Source of the DNA: a virus
Virus record (IMG/VR): IMGVR_UViG_3300027686_001029
Reading direction: 5' to 3' (one strand)
DNA length: 64,000 bases
Each line of letters opens with the position of its first letter. The first letter of the stretch is position 1. Shown here piece after piece: positions 12,826 through 63,128 of this stretch. Made by a program: the position numbers and the translations under genes. The notes below the pieces were generated by a model. It worked only from the letters and a program-made list of their open reading frames with translations. It had not been told where the DNA came from and did no database searches.

Positions 12826-12845
12826 AACCTTTATTTTTATATCTA

Positions 12846-12874
12846 AATATACGAATATTTACTTGTTTTAACAA
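12846..12874 (-). promoter_or_regulatory. Phage consensus promoter (TTGTTA-N17-TATATT)
   Basis: Consensus match upstream of 12430..12825. Confidence 0.65.
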
Positions 12875-12875
12875 A

Positions 12876-18864: not shown

Positions 18865-18890
18865 AACCTTTATTTTTTTATTTATACTTA

Positions 18891-18921
18891 AATATAAGAA
18901 ATATATCTCAGTTACGCAACT
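18891..18921 (-). promoter_or_regulatory. Phage consensus promoter (TTGCGT-N17-TATATT)
   Basis: Consensus match; -35 abuts the TAG of the upstream gene. Confidence 0.75.
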
Positions 18922-36465: not shown

Positions 36466-37425
36466 TTATAAAACTGCTTCAGGACAAAGCCTCATCTTTT
36501 TTACATTGCACCATTTACAGTTATCCTTAGTAGGATTAGCTTTATGATCTTCTTCTATATAGTTACCTAGATGATCCACTGCCTTAGTAATAAAGTTTTG
36601 CATTATCTTAAGTACCTTATTAGTATTTCCTTTTCCGGAAGCAGGGCTAAACTCTTGAACTCTTCTTTGCATTGCTGCAAATTCTGCTTCAACCGGTACT
36701 CTTCTTTTAACAACAAAGTACTCCACATCAATTTTATCAATATCAATATTAAATTGCTTTGCAAAAAACTTTTTATATAGTATAAGTTGCTGAGTTTTGT
36801 TAAGGTCTTTTTTATCTAAAGCACTCCATCCTCTAGTTGAGGTCTTGATATCTACAATTTTCCACCTATCTACTCTTGCATCGTAAAATACTAAATCAAT
36901 AAAGCCTTTAAACATTACTCCAGGACGTAACTCTTGGTATAAGAGCGTCTCTACTCCTGCTAAATGTACGCCCTTAGTATTAAAGTATGCACGTCTTTTT
37001 TTCTTGATAAATTCAAAAATATGTTTACCGTCTAACCAGAACATTCTTAAGTCTTCCGCAGTAGCAAAGTGCTCATGTCCATTCTGTGCTTTGGTAGACT
37101 TGTATGCTTTAATCATATTCTCATATAACAATGCATCTACATCCATTGCCATAGCATCTTTTACCTTACCATGATAAAGTACCTGTAACCATTCTTGTAG
37201 GGTTTCGTGAAATGCTGTTCCGAAAGAAGCATGTATTGAACCCTCATAGGGTATAAGTTTCTTAACGTAAGTTAAGTACCACTGTTTAGGACATCTATCG
37301 TAAGTAGAAAGTTGAGAATAAGAAATATGTTTATTCTTCTTAGATTGTTTAATCTTAGATTCCCATACCTCTTTCACTGCAGGTATAGCTTTAGTATTAA
37401 CTGCATCATGATATATCTTCTTCAT
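36466..37425 (-). CDS. PD-(D/E)XK Cas4/RecB-like exonuclease
   Basis: ISYSQL...CP, GFIDL, VDIKT, QLILY and C-terminal CKWC...CP. Confidence 0.9.
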   Translation of the reverse strand: MKKIYHDAVNTKAIPAVKEVWESKIKQSKKNKHISYSQLSTYDRCPKQWYLTYVKKLIPYEGSIHASFGTAFHETLQEWLQVLYHGKVKDAMAMDVDALLYENMIKAYKSTKAQNGHEHFATAEDLRMFWLDGKHIFEFIKKKRRAYFNTKGVHLAGVETLLYQELRPGVMFKGFIDLVFYDARVDRWKIVDIKTSTRGWSALDKKDLNKTQQLILYKKFFAKQFNIDIDKIDVEYFVVKRRVPVEAEFAAMQRRVQEFSPASGKGNTNKVLKIMQNFITKAVDHLGNYIEEDHKANPTKDNCKWCNVKKMRLCPEAVL

Positions 37426-37432
37426 ATACCTT

Positions 37433-37849
37433 TTACTTTTTCCACATACCGCGTTGGACTAGCTGAGCTATTATTCCATAGTTAGTAACGTCTTGAAACG
37501 TATCTATTATAGTTTCGTTTTGAGCTTTTCTACCAGAGATAATCATATTCTTCCACCTATTAATCTTATCTGAAAGTCTGTACCAAAGGCCAGTCATAGC
37601 GAACTCTGTTTCATCATCTGTGTCTAAATTAGTTCCAGCACTAACATTATGCATTCCATAATCTAAATGTTTTTTAGCAAATAATTCAAACTGTTCATCT
37701 ATGATAGATTGATAACCATCATGTATTGTAGGGTATTCACTTTTTAAAATCTCTCTTGCTGTTTTTACAGGCTCTCCGTGCATTGCGTTCATTATCTCTC
37801 TACTACTCATATTTGTCAAAATATCTTTTAAGGGTTTGTAATACATCAT
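37433..37849 (-). CDS. DUF1599 / nucleotide modification-associated domain 1 (all-alpha NTP-PPase-like)
   Basis: KKHLDYG..N, RLSDKINR and DTFQDVTNYGII motifs. Confidence 0.85.
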   Translation of the reverse strand: MMYYKPLKDILTNMSSREIMNAMHGEPVKTAREILKSEYPTIHDGYQSIIDEQFELFAKKHLDYGMHNVSAGTNLDTDDETEFAMTGLWYRLSDKINRWKNMIISGRKAQNETIIDTFQDVTNYGIIAQLVQRGMWKK

Positions 37850-38021
37850 CAGCTTCTGCTAATGCTTTTGCAGCATCTTCTGCGTTTTTATAAAAATCGT
37901 CGGTAGAATGATCTCCTATACCAGCAGGATTTTCCATTAATAGTTCAAATGTAAGTAATGCTTTTTCTTTCTGAGTTTCGAAAGACTTTTTAAGCATCTT
38001 TATTAGTCTATACTGTGCCAT
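37803..38021 (-). CDS. Hypothetical helical protein (NPAGIGDHS motif)
   Basis: ORF downstream of the promoter in the left repeat. Confidence 0.7.
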   Translation of the reverse strand: MAQYRLIKMLKKSFETQKEKALLTFELLMENPAGIGDHSTDDFYKNAEDAAKALAEADDVLQTLKRYFDKYE

Positions 38022-38042
38022 AACTTATATATTGTTTAATAC

Positions 38043-38091
38043 TTAAATATACGAAAAAATATTCGGGTCTACAAATATCTAATGATATTTT
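38043..38091. repeat. 49-bp direct repeat, left copy (contains promoter TTGTAG-N17-TATATT and an orphan NIIRYL* gene end)
   Basis: 48/49 identical to 39555-39603. Confidence 0.95.
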
Positions 38092-38096
38092 TTTCC

Positions 38097-38576
38097 CTAT
38101 GTAAGCTCAGTATGTACTGTTGAATCAATTGTTTGGATATACTTATCAACTAGTCGTGATACTATTTCTGGTTTCCTATCATTCTTGAATGTAACTTTGA
38201 TTTTAGCCGTAGTTGAACGCTTGCCTCCATCTGAATCTACAAGAATTTCCTTTATATTATGTTCGGTGTGTCCTTTTTTCTTAAAGATACCTAATAATGA
38301 TTTTTTTAAAGAAGATGTATTGGTACCACCAAAGTTTAACCTTGCATCGAATTCTATTTCTAATTTTTCAAGACCTATTGAAGAGTGGTCTGCTAATATG
38401 TAAAGAGGTATTACAACATCCTTACCTTGTATTTTCACCGAAGTTGTTTCTGGATTACCTTCATCATCGAAATAATGTCTCAATGAATTTATGTGTTGTC
38501 TTTCACTTAAGTTAGAAGCTACGAGAGCGGCCTCTAAGAGACCACTCACTAACTCCTCAATCTTTAATTTTGCCAT
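38097..38576 (-). CDS. DUF2589 domain protein
   Basis: L..GLLEAA..A, F...G.P and VIPLYIL..HSSIGLEKLEIEF motifs. Confidence 0.75.
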   Translation of the reverse strand: MAKLKIEELVSGLLEAALVASNLSERQHINSLRHYFDDEGNPETTSVKIQGKDVVIPLYILADHSSIGLEKLEIEFDARLNFGGTNTSSLKKSLLGIFKKKGHTEHNIKEILVDSDGGKRSTTAKIKVTFKNDRKPEIVSRLVDKYIQTIDSTVHTELT

Positions 38577-38597
38577 AACTTATTTTTTAATTGTTTA

Positions 38598-39206
38598 CTA
38601 CTCTCCTGAACCACCTTTACCTCCAGCTGCTGGCTGAGTAATAGGATCCATTAGAGTTGTCAGCATATCAGATAATTTTAACATACCCTCTGTTGGAGGT
38701 AATTGTTCTGCATGTACATTTACTTCGTACTTAGCTGAATTATCAGTCTCTCTTGTATTTTCTCTTGTAGTTGAAACTTCACCATGTACTGTTACTTCAA
38801 CTGGGGAAAACCAACTTTTAGATTTTACATCAACAGTTGATTTTATATCCGTTTTAGAGTGATCTTTTACTGTTTCTTTCACTTCCATAGTAAAACTGAT
38901 ATCCGCTTTAGTTATTGCTAAAGATGGGATTGGTACTAATGGTAGCATTGGGATTTGAGAATGAACTATTTGTAATTGTGGTGCTCCACCTTTTGGGTCT
39001 GCAACAAAACGATTTAGTGCAATCTTAAGTTGTTTTGCTTCTCGAGCATCTCCTTCTTTACCTTCTTTTGGTGCTTCAAAAGCTACTTCTTGAATGTAAT
39101 TCCAAGCTACATCGTTTAATGCTGCTTGTCCTTTAGCCATTCCGATTAAAGGTGATACGATTAGGTCTTCGATAGGAAGTCCTCTGAATTGGTCTGCAAT
39201 TGGCAT
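38598..39206 (-). CDS. DUF2589 domain protein
   Basis: FRGLPIEDLI.SPL...AKGQ..L, PMLPLVPIPSL.I...DISFTMEV and AKYEVNVHAEQ.PP.EG...L.D.L motifs. Confidence 0.88.
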   Translation of the reverse strand: MPIADQFRGLPIEDLIVSPLIGMAKGQAALNDVAWNYIQEVAFEAPKEGKEGDAREAKQLKIALNRFVADPKGGAPQLQIVHSQIPMLPLVPIPSLAITKADISFTMEVKETVKDHSKTDIKSTVDVKSKSWFSPVEVTVHGEVSTTRENTRETDNSAKYEVNVHAEQLPPTEGMLKLSDMLTTLMDPITQPAAGGKGGSGE

Positions 39207-39325
39207 AATTTATTTTGTTTGTTTAGTTAATAAAATGAAAACCTTTATTATGTTGCAGATAAGTATAAACCTTTATTTCTGTAACTAATATAAATATATA
39301 AGATTTTCACTTTTAATATAATTAA

Positions 39326-39529
39326 TTAAGAGAATTTAGCAATATCTGAATATTTATTTTTAATCTTTTCCATCTCTCGTAAACCCTCTCTTAAAGTATC
39401 AGTTGCAATATCACTTGTTTCAAAGTTCATTATTACCTCACAATGAGGACAAACTGAGACTGGGTTATCTAATATGTATTGAAGTGTTAAATCGAGTGGA
39501 TTCTTACACGAAGGACAGGGCATTGCCAT
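39326..39529 (-). CDS. Zinc-ribbon protein
   Basis: CPSC...CPHC; directly downstream of the promoter in the right repeat. Confidence 0.7.
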   Translation of the reverse strand: MAMPCPSCKNPLDLTLQYILDNPVSVCPHCEVIMNFETSDIATDTLREGLREMEKIKNKYSDIAKFS

Positions 39530-39554
39530 ATATAACTTATTTACTGTTTATTCT

Positions 39555-39603
39555 TTAAATATACGAAAAAATATTTGGGTCTACAAATATCTAATGATAT
39601 TTT
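39555..39603. repeat. 49-bp direct repeat, right copy (promoter plus 3' end of ORF 39581..40729)
   Basis: 48/49 identical to 38043-38091. Confidence 0.95.
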
Positions 39604-40729
39604 CTTCCTTTTCGTTTTTAATACCTCCACCGATATCTTTCTTATCTAGCCAAGCTTCAGTATTATCAGAATAGAGTACTCTTATTTTTGAAGGAGATTT
39701 TTGTAATATTTTTATAATTTTCTTCTCTGGAATTGGTTTATCATTCTCATCTGATATTATCCAATCTTCTTCTTTTATAATTTTAGGTGAGTGTAATGTT
39801 CCTTTTACTTTAGGTGCTATAACAGTAATAGGGTCTACTACCTCTATTTCGTTTACGTTTACAGTCTCATCTTTTTTTTTAGTAGGAGGTTCTTCCTCTT
39901 CTAACTCACCGTATAGATTCTTCCTATTAGCGTTGTCGAATGCAAAGTTTGCTGCAATTACTAATGAAATAGCTAAAGGATCAAATACAAATATAATTAC
40001 TAACAACAATATGTTGATAATCTTATCCATAGAAGTACCAGTTAATCCGGAAAGGTATTGAAGTGGACCTAACTCTCCTGCTACTTCAGAATTATTCTCT
40101 AAAGTCAGAATTTCGATTTGATACTTTTGTAAGGAATCGGCTGCCACTTCTCGTTTAGTTTGAACCTTTTGTCGGTTTTCTTCTTCCACTTCGATACGTT
40201 TTTGGGATAACCTAAGCTCTGTAGTAGAGATTGTTGATCGAAAGCCTGAAGATACCGTGGTGTCTCGTACTTGGATGTTTGAAACTTTCGCATTAGATAA
40301 AGTGCTAATGTTATTAGAGATTCTTTCAAGTTCCTGATCATATCGTATAACGTCTTTATTGTAGAAGTCTTTCTTTTGAGTTAAGAAAGCTGTTTGATTG
40401 TTTTTAATTGTTAGCTGTCTATAAGTATCTTGATATGCTGCACTTAAAAAGCCGTATATACCCATACTAGTAATAAGTACTAAAACTACAGCAGCAATAG
40501 AGAGATACGTTCTAAGAAGCTTATTTATAGTGTCCCAATACTGGTATAAGAGTGAAGCTATAACTAGTTTAGCTACCTCCAATGAACCTGCCATTATAAT
40601 TACCTCTAGTGTAGCTCCTGCAAATAGCTTACTTAACCCACTTACGGAGTAAAAAGCAGCTGAGCCGCTTACAGAGAGAGCAGTTAATGCTATAATGGTA
40701 GGGAAAAAGTTTCTTTTAATTCTATTCAT
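39581..40729 (-). CDS. Membrane protein with 3 N-terminal TM helices, coiled coil and C-terminal TM helix
   Basis: AAFYSVSGLSKLFAGA, LEVAKLV, ITSMGIYGFLS and FVFDPLAISL motifs. Confidence 0.8.
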   Translation of the reverse strand: MNRIKRNFFPTIIALTALSVSGSAAFYSVSGLSKLFAGATLEVIIMAGSLEVAKLVIASLLYQYWDTINKLLRTYLSIAAVVLVLITSMGIYGFLSAAYQDTYRQLTIKNNQTAFLTQKKDFYNKDVIRYDQELERISNNISTLSNAKVSNIQVRDTTVSSGFRSTISTTELRLSQKRIEVEEENRQKVQTKREVAADSLQKYQIEILTLENNSEVAGELGPLQYLSGLTGTSMDKIINILLLVIIFVFDPLAISLVIAANFAFDNANRKNLYGELEEEEPPTKKKDETVNVNEIEVVDPITVIAPKVKGTLHSPKIIKEEDWIISDENDKPIPEKKIIKILQKSPSKIRVLYSDNTEAWLDKKDIGGGIKNEKEENIIRYL

Positions 40730-41157
40730 TATTGAGCTAGTAAAAGTAAAGTTGCAAATACTCCGATGCCTGAACCTATCTGGTATAGTTTCTTAGCACG
40801 AGCCTCTTTCTTTAATTCTTTTTGTAACTGATTAGAAAGAACATCTGAAGTTTGTAACTGTACGTTTTTATCGCTAATAATTAATTGGTAGTTTTTAACT
40901 TGCTGAGATAAGTTAGTGTTTAATTTAAGTGACTTATCTAACCTGTTATTGGTTTCTTGAATCAATTGATTTAATGTTTTATTAGTCTTTTCTAATCCAT
41001 CAAAGCTGATTAAGTCTTTTACGACTAACTTAGCTATAGGTTTAGTTAATACTATCCTTGTAGTATCTGTAACGGTCTGTGAAAAACTGTTCCAGCTTAT
41101 CATTACTGTAAAGATTAACAGCATCAAGCTGTTTCTGTGTTTCTTTTTTGATAGCAT
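40729..41157 (-). CDS. Spanin-like envelope protein
   Basis: Signal peptide, coiled coil and C-terminal TM; overlaps 41042..41401 beside the amidase. Confidence 0.5.
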   Translation of the reverse strand: MLSKKKHRNSLMLLIFTVMISWNSFSQTVTDTTRIVLTKPIAKLVVKDLISFDGLEKTNKTLNQLIQETNNRLDKSLKLNTNLSQQVKNYQLIISDKNVQLQTSDVLSNQLQKELKKEARAKKLYQIGSGIGVFATLLLLAQ

Positions 41158-41401
41158 ATATCTTAATATTTAAGTTTTTAATTTTCCTATCGTAGTTTGC
41201 TAGCTCTAATACAAGTGAATCAGCTTGTACTTCTAGCGTAATGTTTTTAACTTGTAGAGAATCTATCTTACTCTCTAAAGCTACTATTTGAGACTCATAC
41301 TTAGATACATCTGTTTTTATATCAGTAGGAGCAAAGATCATTCTGTACAACACTATAGCAGCAATAGCAATTATAACGTTCTGTATTAATGTCTTATTCA
41401 T
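41042..41401 (-). CDS. i-spanin-like protein (N-terminal TM plus coiled coil)
   Basis: TM-coiled-coil topology next to the endolysin. Confidence 0.55.
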   Translation of the reverse strand: MNKTLIQNVIIAIAAIVLYRMIFAPTDIKTDVSKYESQIVALESKIDSLQVKNITLEVQADSLVLELANYDRKIKNLNIKIYAIKKETQKQLDAVNLYSNDKLEQFFTDRYRYYKDSIN

Positions 41402-41409
41402 ATAGTATA

Positions 41410-41440
41410 AATATAAGAAAATTACTTTGATCTAGCAACT
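41410..41440 (-). promoter_or_regulatory. Phage consensus promoter (TTGCTA-N17-TATATT)
   Basis: Consensus match; -35 lies within the 3' end of the amidase gene. Confidence 0.6.
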
Positions 41441-41922
41441 AATGTACTCTTAAATGCTTCCCAGTCAAAAGCGTTACCAGGGTCAGGTTTACCTTTCCCT
41501 TTACCTCTTACGTGATCACCGGAGCAGTCTGAGTGTCTTACTATGTTATCTATATCTATATTATACTTATTCATCCAGAAACTAAATACATTTACAGCAG
41601 TATCAAATTGATGCTTTGTGTATGTACCTTTTTTCTTAATTTTAGAATTAAACGATGACCAGTCATTTACTCCTGCTACTAATAGTTCAACTCCTAAGTA
41701 ATGTGAGTTGAGATGTTTTAGACCATTCCATTCTGATTTACCTGCATGAAAGGCTTTACTTGGAGACACAATATGTTTGTCATATGTACCGTCAGGTTTA
41801 ATATAACCATGAACGGATAAACCTATTTCTCTTATAAATTCTTTAGCATATAGTGTCTTACCTTCATATACTAGATATTCTGACATACTGTGTAGTATCA
41901 GTCCTTTTGGAACAATTGGCAT
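41422..41922 (-). CDS. N-acetylmuramoyl-L-alanine amidase (Amidase_2, endolysin)
   Basis: LILHS, SVHGYI, AFHAGKSEW, NS..LGVEL, IVRHSD and K.DPG..FDW motifs. Confidence 0.92.
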   Translation of the reverse strand: MPIVPKGLILHSMSEYLVYEGKTLYAKEFIREIGLSVHGYIKPDGTYDKHIVSPSKAFHAGKSEWNGLKHLNSHYLGVELLVAGVNDWSSFNSKIKKKGTYTKHQFDTAVNVFSFWMNKYNIDIDNIVRHSDCSGDHVRGKGKGKPDPGNAFDWEAFKSTLVARSK

Positions 41923-41933
41923 AATAACTTATT

Positions 41934-42269
41934 TTAAAATTTATCGTAATCTATTGAATCTCCACAGTTATCACAGTAACTAGGACCAGTTATAGTATGT
42001 GGATCTGCATCTGTCATTTCTATTGATTCTCCTGGTACGCCGTCATCGTCGCTGGCATTAAACCAAAAGTCTATAATCTTACCATATGAAGCAATAAATG
42101 CACCCAGTACAAGTAAAAGTATTTCCTTCCATTCTGAGCCCATTGCTGCTTCAGAAAATAAAGCTATACCTATACCTACCATAATAAGTAGAAAAGTGAC
42201 TAGAACAACGGTGGTGATAACGAACCTGTTTCTACGTACTCCTTTTTGTTTTTCTGTTATATCTGCCAT
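41934..42269 (-). CDS. Two-TM membrane protein, holin candidate
   Basis: Two TM helices, immediately upstream of the amidase. Confidence 0.5.
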   Translation of the reverse strand: MADITEKQKGVRRNRFVITTVVLVTFLLIMVGIGIALFSEAAMGSEWKEILLLVLGAFIASYGKIIDFWFNASDDDGVPGESIEMTDADPHTITGPSYCDNCGDSIDYDKF

Positions 42270-47824: not shown

Positions 47825-48366
47825 TTGTGTAAAACGTTTTTAAAATTATTATATCCGGCTGCTGCGTTAGCCAGCCAACGAGAGGATTCTCCATCATCGC
47901 TTATCCATTTATACAAAGATACGGAAACATTTTCAGACTGACAAACTTTTGCTATAGAATATCCTTCCATGTCTACTATATCACATTCTCGTATCTTAGT
48001 CGTATAGTTATTACTGTAGACTCCTTCTATATCATAAAAGATATCGGTAGTAAATAACTTAGTAGGGGAATCAGATACTTTAATTGGCAGATGTTCCGGA
48101 ACTACACAACCGTAGAAGTCATCGTGTATTACACCAACTTTAAGTACTTCTCCTACTTTATGGTTTTTTAGGTTTCCACAAGAGCCAAAATTTATAACAT
48201 GGTGCGGTATTTCTCCAGCATGAGTTAACTTGTAGTTATCTATTAATTTTTTTATATTTAAAGCAGATTCAACTTTACCTACTCCAATAATATGGATTGG
48301 AATACCAAAAAGTTCTGTATCATGGTGCTCTAATTTAGTAGCCGATACTAATAAGATATTAGACAT
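47803..48366 (-). CDS. Nucleoside phosphorylase / MTA-SAH nucleosidase-like (PNP_UDP_1)
   Basis: GVGKVESA, INFGSCG, VDMEGYSIA and KWISD motifs. Confidence 0.85.
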   Translation of the reverse strand: MSNILLVSATKLEHHDTELFGIPIHIIGVGKVESALNIKKLIDNYKLTHAGEIPHHVINFGSCGNLKNHKVGEVLKVGVIHDDFYGCVVPEHLPIKVSDSPTKLFTTDIFYDIEGVYSNNYTTKIRECDIVDMEGYSIAKVCQSENVSVSLYKWISDDGESSRWLANAAAGYNNFKNVLHKWLEQQK

Positions 48367-62672: not shown

Positions 62673-62694
62673 TCTTATAACTTATTTATACTTA

Positions 62695-62723
62695 AATATA
62701 CGATTTTATTTTGTAGTATCCAA
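62695..62723 (-). promoter_or_regulatory. Promoter for folE (TTGGAT-N17-TATATT)
   Basis: Consensus match. Confidence 0.7.
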
Positions 62724-63128
62724 ATAACCTTGTATGGTTTTTGAATCTTTTTTTTCCCAAGGGTAAACTATCCATTCAGGTCCTATATGCTGTGCAAAAT
62801 AATCTGGTTTAAATGTAGATTGTTTTTTATAATGAAGTGTTGCATATAAAGGTTGGGGGAACTTATACTGAAACTGTTTTAAAGTTTCTCCTGTATCAGC
62901 TATATCATCAAGTACTAATAGGCTTGGATAATGATTGCTTGGGTTTTCCATATACTCAATTCCGAACCTATGTGAGTAGAGTATTGCTAAAATCGTACCT
63001 CCTCTTGGTACTCCTGTAACGTATCCTACCTGTCCTTTTGTCTGTTGGTATATATTATCTAGAAGGGAGTTTATATCTTCCCACGTTAAAAAAACTTTCT
63101 TTACGCTCATACAATATTTGTTGTCCAA
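62706..63128 (-). CDS. Type I phosphoribosyltransferase (Gpt/Hpt-like)
   Basis: GVPRGG, LVLDDIADTGETL and WIVYPWE motifs. Confidence 0.9.
   Translation of the reverse strand: MDNKYCMSVKKVFLTWEDINSLLDNIYQQTKGQVGYVTGVPRGGTILAILYSHRFGIEYMENPSNHYPSLLVLDDIADTGETLKQFQYKFPQPLYATLHYKKQSTFKPDYFAQHIGPEWIVYPWEKKDSKTIQGYLDTTK

Follow-up and report, generated by a model that had tools for sequence, protein, structure and literature searches.

A conserved DUF2589 gene trio lies between duplicated, predicted promoter units in two lineages of uncultured phages

How can a phage take on additional genes at a working locus without breaking the gene upstream or silencing the one downstream? The question is raised by a 64,000-nucleotide (nt) stretch of DNA, hereafter the window, from an uncultured virus (IMG/VR record IMGVR_UViG_3300027686_001029). 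In it, a Zn-ribbon gene (Z) and two genes of the DUF2589 family, DUF2589a (A) and DUF2589b (B), lie between two copies of a unit that combines a gene end with a predicted promoter. An initial annotation, made from the letters of the sequence, had proposed that this cassette is an integrase-less, excisable insertion. We find that the unit is duplicated, that relatives carry empty sites, that the trio is conserved as a unit, and that a second, independent phage lineage shares the architecture. We therefore favor, with a probability of roughly 0.75, the reading that a conserved, portable trio was inserted with duplication of the promoter unit.

Every gene across 36-43 kb lies on the minus strand in the list of open reading frames (ORFs). 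Read 5' to 3', the order is mem382, the upstream repeat copy (R), the Zn-ribbon gene, a 119-nt spacer, DUF2589a, DUF2589b, the downstream repeat copy (L) and orf72. A direct-repeat search paired 38020-38096 with 39532-39608, 77 nt at 91% identity (70/77) and a spacing of 1512. Within this pair sits a 49-nt core, 38043-38091 against 39555-39603, identical at 48 of 49 positions. The initial annotation had reported this core as repeats 1,512 bp apart, and the search both recovered and extended it: once a 4-nt (AT)n indel is accepted, the similarity reaches to the end of ATGGCA, with which both the Zn-ribbon gene and orf72 open (two codons each), and the minus-strand units then measure 85 nt (R, 39524..39608) and 81 nt (L, 38016..38096). 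The core occurs exactly twice in the window, against 0 expected (100 shuffles), and an exact 25-mer of the repeat had no match in IMG/VR. On the gene strand the unit begins with GGAA(G/A)AAAATATCATTAGATATTTGTAG. In R, as had been supposed, this is the genuine end of mem382 (39581..40729, minus strand; EENIIRYL*), whose last 8 codons fall inside the repeat and are followed by the predicted promoter, the 5' untranslated region (UTR) and the ATGGCA start of the Zn-ribbon gene. Its counterpart in L is an orphan EKNIIRYL* relic, one base past the DUF2589b stop, with a predicted promoter, a 5' UTR and the ATGGCA start of orf72 behind it.

R and L share 27 of 28 bases upstream of the -33 element and are much more alike than other members of their promoter class; we therefore treat them as a true duplication. 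They differ at seven positions, two in the first 54 nt (promoter) and five in the last 23 nt (start site and 5' UTR), a clustering with p of about 0.03 by a binomial estimate. The longest exact stretch is 27 nt, with private mismatches on both sides, and a 4-nt indel separates the copies. Orthologous spacers in two relatives (L111, L112) diverge widely, whereas the promoter parts of R and L are nearly identical, which speaks for a recent duplication. Because the -33 TTTG lies within the final codons of mem382 (TAT TTG TAG), a complete copy of the promoter must include the gene end. Hence, the mem382 end would have been copied because of this overlap, and not through att-type integration.

The Bacteroidota -33/-7 promoter consensus is TTTG / TAnnTTTG. 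The unit carries TTTG, a 20-nt spacer and then TATATTTA, with the predicted minus-strand elements at 39584-39587 (-33) and 39556-39563 (-7, TATATTTA) in R and at 38072-38075 and 38044-38051 in L. It thus fits a near-consensus promoter of the Bacteroidota type, with activity predicted from the motif. A generic sigma-70 scan does not flag it, and the motif is not a sigma-70 consensus. A broader class motif, TTTG-N20-CGTATATTTA followed about 22-27 nt on by ATGGCA, recurs in the window: CGTATATTTA appears five times on the coding strand and not once on the other, four of the five copies have a TTTG 5' at the same spacing, and three of these four have ATGGCA within about 22-27 nt. Besides R and L, the 64 kb hold three or four weaker class members. 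The unit thus appears to belong to a class of promoters that recurs in this phage and that is probably a single temporal class. Further class members of the form TTTG-N20-(C)GTATATTTA lie on the minus strand at 12844-12875, 18888-18904, 47914-47945 and 62693-62724, mostly with ATGGCA about 22-27 nt downstream.

If the cassette is an insertion, relatives should hold the site with a single unit. We sampled relatives with mem382, whose homologues were found at 15 IMG/VR loci and 80 retained metagenome loci (about 95 in all); no DUF2589 or Zn-ribbon gene lies 3' of mem382 in any of them. In L111 and L112, mem382 is followed by one homologous unit, by ATGGC(A/G)CA(G/A), the start of an orf72 homologue (75% identical in amino acids, aa), and then by DUF1599 (81-82%) and the nuclease gene. 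This arrangement matches the predicted empty allele, the single-copy site that the initial annotation had suggested looking for, and supports its reading of the cassette as an insertion. Three others (L004, L108, L109) have mem382, one intergenic region and then DUF1599. The mem382 C-terminus, ..NII(R/K)Y(L/M)*, is kept in L004, L107 and L108. The nearest named phage, Flavobacterium phage vB_FspM_immuto (about 72% nt identity over the 22% of the query that aligned), has a mem382 homologue, then a DUF3310 gene and a nuclease, and lacks the trio. In L065 the trio stands about 1.3 kb upstream of the slot, between a lipoprotein gene and an endolysin-like gene, while an orf72-like gene sits in the slot itself.

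The slot between mem382 and the nuclease spans 232-1460 nt with at least five different contents in 28 relatives, against 2155 nt in the window, and is on this evidence hyperplastic. None of the 28 has internal direct repeats in the slot; promoter duplication is therefore not a general slot feature, and the window version with its duplication appears unique among the relatives. In two loci, DUF1599 and the nuclease are separated by an additional 900 nt or so (L130:3370-4280, L134:4095-5005), and two more (L107, L110) have 0.9-1.5 kb of unrelated content 3' of mem382; these segments look like further indels of the same slot. A mosaic signal also crosses the slot (39581-42269 against 37433-38021): orf111, orf119, orf142 and mem382 are closest to L107 (79-91% aa identity), and orf72 and DUF1599 to L111/L112 (75-82%), the upstream genes of which are just 47-73% identical to those of the window. 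We considered an illegitimate joining of two parent phages, with a left arm nearest L107 and a right arm nearest L111/L112, and gave it less weight, since the two repeat copies both resemble L107/L108 and hardly differ between themselves.

We surveyed the trio elsewhere by retaining 80 IMG/VR loci of 200 viral matches and determining their gene content by tblastn and ORF clustering; counts out of 81 include the window. A is present in 81/81 loci, B in 79/81 and Z in 76/81 (80/80, 78/80 and 75/80 without the window), co-oriented in all loci, whereas the next commonest neighbor reaches 25 loci. The genes come in the orders ZAB (42, including the window), ABZ (16, plus 4 with an intervening gene), AZB (7) and BZA (6), in about 22 distinct flanking contexts and on contigs of up to 483 kb. 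Because the linkage persists despite changed gene order and context, the survey is strong evidence that the trio acts as a three-component functional unit. The initial annotation had nominated a novel three-gene system and a survey of DUF2589 neighborhoods; the unit is real and conserved, with linkage in 80 viral loci and four orders, but it is widespread in uncultured phages and not special to the window. That commonest neighbor (cluster c3, 25/81 loci) comprises homologues of orf111 (window 41934-42269), a protein with a transmembrane (TM) segment and a C-terminal CxxC; in several contexts their place is immediately 5' of Z or else between B and Z, and orf111 could be a fourth partner in loose linkage.

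DUF2589a has 992 homologues in a large protein collection, most at 55-70% identity, and a profile search returned 1609 cluster representatives. A single-protein scan of IMG/VR with DUF2589a found no match; an alignment-based scan succeeded, with 200 viral contigs as against 10 matches in 185,579 species genomes, mostly metagenome-assembled. Among 50,697 deposited phage genomes there was no close homologue and one weak match at 23% identity. By these counts the clade to which the window's module belongs is overwhelmingly viral.

Does the duplicated architecture recur with the trio? We scanned the flanks of every trio locus for direct repeats. Besides the window, matches came from L064, L067, L068, L071, L073, L079, L084, L086 and L087. 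In this second lineage the trio lies between 41-53-nt repeats made up of a stem-loop, a T-run and TATATTTATA, and each locus has exactly two of them. The repeat reads AAGGGAGAACAT(A/C)GTTTCTCCC-T6-7-ATATTTATAA: a GC-rich hairpin with a 9-bp stem (z -3.9 for the downstream copy), the T-run, and a -7-like box just before the next start codon. With the downstream lipoprotein gene, c5, as probe for further alleles, we recovered 11 loci with c13-Z-A-B-c5 and two hairpin units, and two more, 5'-truncated, with B-c5 (filled alleles L187-L198 and L201). Empty alleles occur as well: in close relatives such as L199, L200, L204 and L210, where c5 is 88-95% identical in amino acids, c13 is followed by one hairpin-promoter unit and then c5. 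Taken together, the trio behaves as a presence/absence polymorphism flanked by duplicated regulatory units in two unrelated phage backbones, and the duplicated-unit architecture evidently arose independently in the second.

The trio itself measures 1433 bp from ATG to stop, all on the minus strand, and no second trio was found in the window. The Zn-ribbon gene (39326..39529) comes first and encodes 67 aa with CPxC...CPHC and a C-terminal helix. It has no curated Pfam family above threshold; P4, C5, C8, C27, P28 and C30 are invariant across the family (76/81 loci), and the N-terminus, MA(L/M)PCP, is native to it. An AT-rich spacer of 119 nt (39207..39325) follows, with a weak AU hairpin only (z -1.9); an Rfam search of 37300-40900, which includes the spacer, returned nothing real. 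DUF2589a (38598..39206, 202 aa) is the long paralogue and DUF2589b (38097..38576, 159 aa), 21 nt 3' of it, the short one. Both belong to PF11655 (gathering cut-off 23), A at 94.8 bits (8.7e-27; residues 11-184 on model positions 1-153) and B at 48.5 bits (1.6e-12; residues 6-148 on 2-153), and they have no BLASTP similarity to each other, which bears out the early description of two divergent DUF2589 paralogues beside a Zn-ribbon gene. The cassette contains exactly these three ORFs and none is a recombinase, as the term integrase-less had implied.

What might the trio do? In the literature searched, DUF2589 is named in two papers, each time in passing, and we found no published experimental function. 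The AlphaFold2 model of A, with a predicted local distance difference test score (pLDDT) of 70, shows an N-terminal helix, a four-stranded sheet, a poorly modelled region at 113-151 and a C-terminal helix. The four strands alternate strictly between hydrophobic and polar residues across 76 homologues, and a central hairpin, modelled at a pLDDT below 50, has a conserved aromatic tip with the consensus GFWG, a pattern compatible with a membrane-inserting hairpin. The B proteins of nine loci, on contigs of 23-271 kb (L035/L047/L074 type), contain an inserted PG_binding_1 domain (PF01471, peptidoglycan-binding; 30 bits against a cut-off of 23) in the region equivalent to the hairpin of A. An example is the 237-aa B orthologue at L035:6694-7407 (E 5.9e-7), with others in L036, L037, L047-L049, L051 and L074, and such B proteins occur on some jumbo-phage contigs. 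A different, 60-aa C-terminal extension of B occurs in L082 and L083. Wall hydrolases (GH19 or an endolysin-PHROG family) lie at most 4 genes from the trio in 13/80 loci, about 8 of the 22 contexts; small TM proteins and lipoproteins are frequent neighbors, and in the window the trio stands 3' of an amidase and three TM/coiled-coil genes. On the strength of the insert in B, the nearby hydrolases, the TM and lipoprotein neighbors and the window context, we tentatively suggest, at a little short of even odds, that A and B, with the Zn-ribbon protein as partner, form a late hetero-oligomer directed at the envelope or at lysis, which would act on the membrane or cell wall as the cell lyses.

Several observations weigh against this functional assignment. 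The model of A matched no solved fold (no Foldseek hit in the PDB with E<3; best VIA Z 4.0), the model of B is unusable at a pLDDT of 45, neither protein has a TM helix or signal peptide, and the seven loci with the order AZB adjoin the gp23 capsid gene and not lysis genes. A sequence-profile search of the PDB gave no match, and the ESM Atlas returned DUF2589 only. The likeness to holin-endolysin-spanin cassettes and to beta-barrel pore formers made in the cytoplasm (bacterial gasdermin, Pepco) is one of possible working mode: small proteins with no signal peptide and amphipathic beta-strands, encoded among late envelope and lysis genes, one paralogue sometimes with a peptidoglycan-binding domain. 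A and B differ from holins in lacking holin-type TM helices, and from gasdermin and Pepco in having no Trypco/Pepco or gasdermin match in Pfam at E<=0.01, no structural match and no protease partner. Pepco is moreover a different family from DUF2589 (Evans et al. 2025, bioRxiv 10.1101/2025.11.14.688446).

The trio could instead be a virion or morphogenesis component, or an anti-defense or exclusion factor. The AZB loci (L019, L024, L038, L040-L042, L044) speak for this, in which the trio immediately follows the gp23 major capsid gene and is itself followed by a head-tail-adaptor-like gene; so does its absence from many relatives, which makes it dispensable in the way of accessory counter-defense genes, and a peptidoglycan-binding insert would equally suit a virion protein that breaches the wall at entry. 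Set against these points, PHROGs gave no match for A or B and hence no structural family, PADLOC gave none at E<=0.01 for the six proteins tested, no capsid, tail or baseplate fold matched above Z 4, and most contexts consist of small TM proteins, lipoproteins and wall hydrolases. We consider this alternative less likely than an envelope or lysis role. Comparably speculative is a bolder version of that role, in which the trio would be a self-contained, horizontally mobile cassette that lands on promoter/terminator units between unrelated phages and encodes a hetero-oligomeric complex of an undescribed class that breaches the envelope, whether as a wall-anchored pore or as a non-holin disruptor of the membrane or outer membrane.

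We return to how the window acquired its copy. In the reading we favor, the portable trio would have entered an immuto-like Flavobacterium phage at the hypervariable slot that separates mem382 from orf72, in an event that duplicated the resident unit of ~80 bp, from mem382 codon -8 through the promoter to ATGGCA. Mem382 would have been left intact, the trio would be read from the original promoter copy, and the orf72-DUF1599 pair would keep a copy of the same promoter. The event may have been a local illegitimate, microhomology-based or template-switch event, with the ATGGCA at the starts of the Zn-ribbon gene and orf72 as a possible microhomology at one junction. We favor a local duplication because the downstream copy holds the mem382 relic, which a foreign circle could not supply. 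Some features weigh against this account. A convincing stem-loop is absent from the window unit, which forms just a 7-bp AU hairpin (z -0.65 and -1.57), so that the element defining the otherwise similar PeSL (promoter-early stem-loop) units is missing; high-identity copies number just two, not dozens; the cassette, at 33.5% GC against 32.9% for the window, shows no compositional sign of foreign origin; and the polarity of a gain in this phage rests on parsimony, as no phage more than 90% identical was among the relatives compared.

Among described processes, the modular shuffling that PeSLs mediate in T4-type phages comes closest, and the likeness is one of architecture. Each PeSL extends from an upstream stop codon to the next start codon, with an AT-rich region, a promoter and a stem-loop in between (Arbiol et al. 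2010, PMC2839356; Comeau et al. 2014, PMC4122927). The ORFs that PeSLs flank are variable, and indels and encapsidated mini-circles arise when the units recombine (PMC2839356; PMC4122927). The window unit likewise spans the mem382 stop to ATGGCA with a predicted host-type promoter, and units in both lineages flank genes that are present or absent between relatives (L111 and L112; the second lineage), in the window in a hyperplastic region; the second lineage (L064/L187 group) has the stem-loop with T-run as well and fits closely. The window differs in its lack of a stable stem-loop, in a promoter of the Bacteroidota type (-33 TTTG / -7 TAnnTTTR) and not sigma-70, in two high-identity copies as against about 50 PeSLs in phi1 and RB49, in a cargo that is a conserved three-gene module where PeSLs carry single ORFans, and in a coding relic in the downstream copy, which points to target duplication and not to exchange between pre-existing units. 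Mini-circles were demonstrated for PeSLs. The 48/49 core of the window would be a plausible substrate for homologous deletion or circle formation, and, given the PeSL precedent and the filled and empty alleles of the second lineage, we see it as an even bet that the two repeats can recombine as those of PeSL cassettes do, deleting the cassette or releasing a promoter-bearing circle.

A PeSL-type origin would dispense with illegitimate target duplication altogether: the trio would have come as a small circle, or by double crossover, with its own promoter unit and recombined with a similar resident promoter. The recurrent promoter class could supply the homology, the repeats of the second lineage are pure terminator-promoter units without a coding relic and its empty sites hold one, and mini-circles have a demonstrated precedent (PMC2839356). 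This origin is harder to square with the window itself, where the downstream copy matches the mem382 3' end ahead of -33 at 27 of 28 bases, a stretch that a foreign circle would not have, and where both copies are L107/L108-like (NIIRYL) and nearly identical, as expected of local duplication. We therefore rate homologous exchange as a rather poor second to insertion with local duplication.

Polarity could also be reversed, with the two-repeat cassette ancestral and the relatives having lost it by recombination between the repeats, one copy being left behind. Deletion between 80-bp direct repeats is easy and yields single-copy sites such as those of L111 and L112, and the slot is hyperplastic. 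Yet the cassette is missing from about 95 relatives, which show at least five different slot contents and include the closest by mem382 (79-89%) and by orf72/DUF1599 (75-82%); the sole relative with the trio nearby, L065, has it in another slot; and the copies differ at 2/54 promoter positions where orthologous spacers differ widely, as in a young duplication. Loss in the relatives is thus improbable. An assembly artefact, in which the repeat led a metagenome assembler to splice a foreign segment into a contig from an uncultured phage, is more improbable still: the copies are exact over 27 nt at most, with private mismatches on both sides and a 4-nt indel, the relic beside the DUF2589b stop must be real DNA under any assembly path, and a 97%-identical DUF2589a lies on an ENA metagenome contig, although that record may share the window's sample. 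Thus, of the outcomes that would have told against an inserted DUF2589 cassette, namely no empty allele, an assembly artefact and proteins outside DUF2589, none was found, and the private mismatches make the artefact very unlikely.

Other mobile or accessory elements compare less well. Phage morons, reportedly described by Juhala and Hendrix in 2000, are said to be extra transcription units between two genes of lambdoid phages. The window cassette resembles them as an accessory block between two backbone genes, with its own promoter and absent from relatives. It departs from the moron pattern of own promoter plus terminator and atypical composition: no terminator-like site was found in the window unit, GC does not deviate, and the promoter appears to be a copy of the resident one, not an import. 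PF11655 multi-paralogue cassettes of bacteria, archaea and viruses share the tight linkage of a long and a short DUF2589, often beside a small Zn-ribbon protein and wall hydrolases, but the window module is a phage trio without their LytTR regulator or helical fourth protein. An integrase island with attL/attR does not fit, as the cassette has no recombinase and the neighboring genes have no recombinase match in Pfam. Neither does an insertion sequence or transposon: there is no transposase, the sole inverted repeat is weak and internal (21 nt at 76%), and the duplication of about 80 bp compares with target duplications of 2-15 bp.

The neighboring genes complete the picture. Upstream, mem382 encodes a 382-aa protein with multiple TM segments and a coiled coil; a Pfam search gave no family match. 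Directly after the amidase come two minus-strand genes that share 116 nt and are read in different frames: orf119 (41042..41401; N-terminal TM and coiled coil) and orf142 (40729..41157; coiled coil between a signal-like N-terminus and a C-terminal TM). They are arranged like overlapped spanin pairs, although a lipobox cysteine is absent from orf142. Downstream, orf72 (37803..38021, minus strand; phrog_1811, function unknown) is the gene 3' of the single-copy unit in the empty-site relatives. It is followed on the minus strand by a DUF1599/Nmad1-like gene (37433..37810; Pfam 25.2 bits), a PD-(D/E)XK nuclease gene, orf63 and a glycosyltransferase gene. Orthologue alignments of DUF1599 begin at residue 14, so its real start is probably M14 (ATG 37808-37810), and the listed 138-aa ORF would be 13 codons too long. 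At 37803-37810 the orf72 stop overlaps this likely start as ATGAGTAG, which suggests translational coupling.

Beyond the initial annotation, our analysis adds the promoter/stop overlap, the hyperplastic slot, a widespread trio whose gene order changes, a peptidoglycan-binding variant of B and the second lineage. The locus is a clean natural example, in two independent lineages, of how large aquatic phages may add a multi-gene module and yet keep the upstream gene whole and the downstream one active. PeSL-type shuffling is documented in T4-like phages of Proteobacteria (PMC2839356, PMC4122927), and the present case would extend the same logic to phages with Bacteroidota-type promoters. It also delivers a sharply bounded three-gene unit of an unstudied family that is common in uncultured phages, including those on 250-480-kb contigs. 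With ATG-to-stop limits, conserved partners and a peptidoglycan-binding variant in hand, the trio is ready for experimental study.

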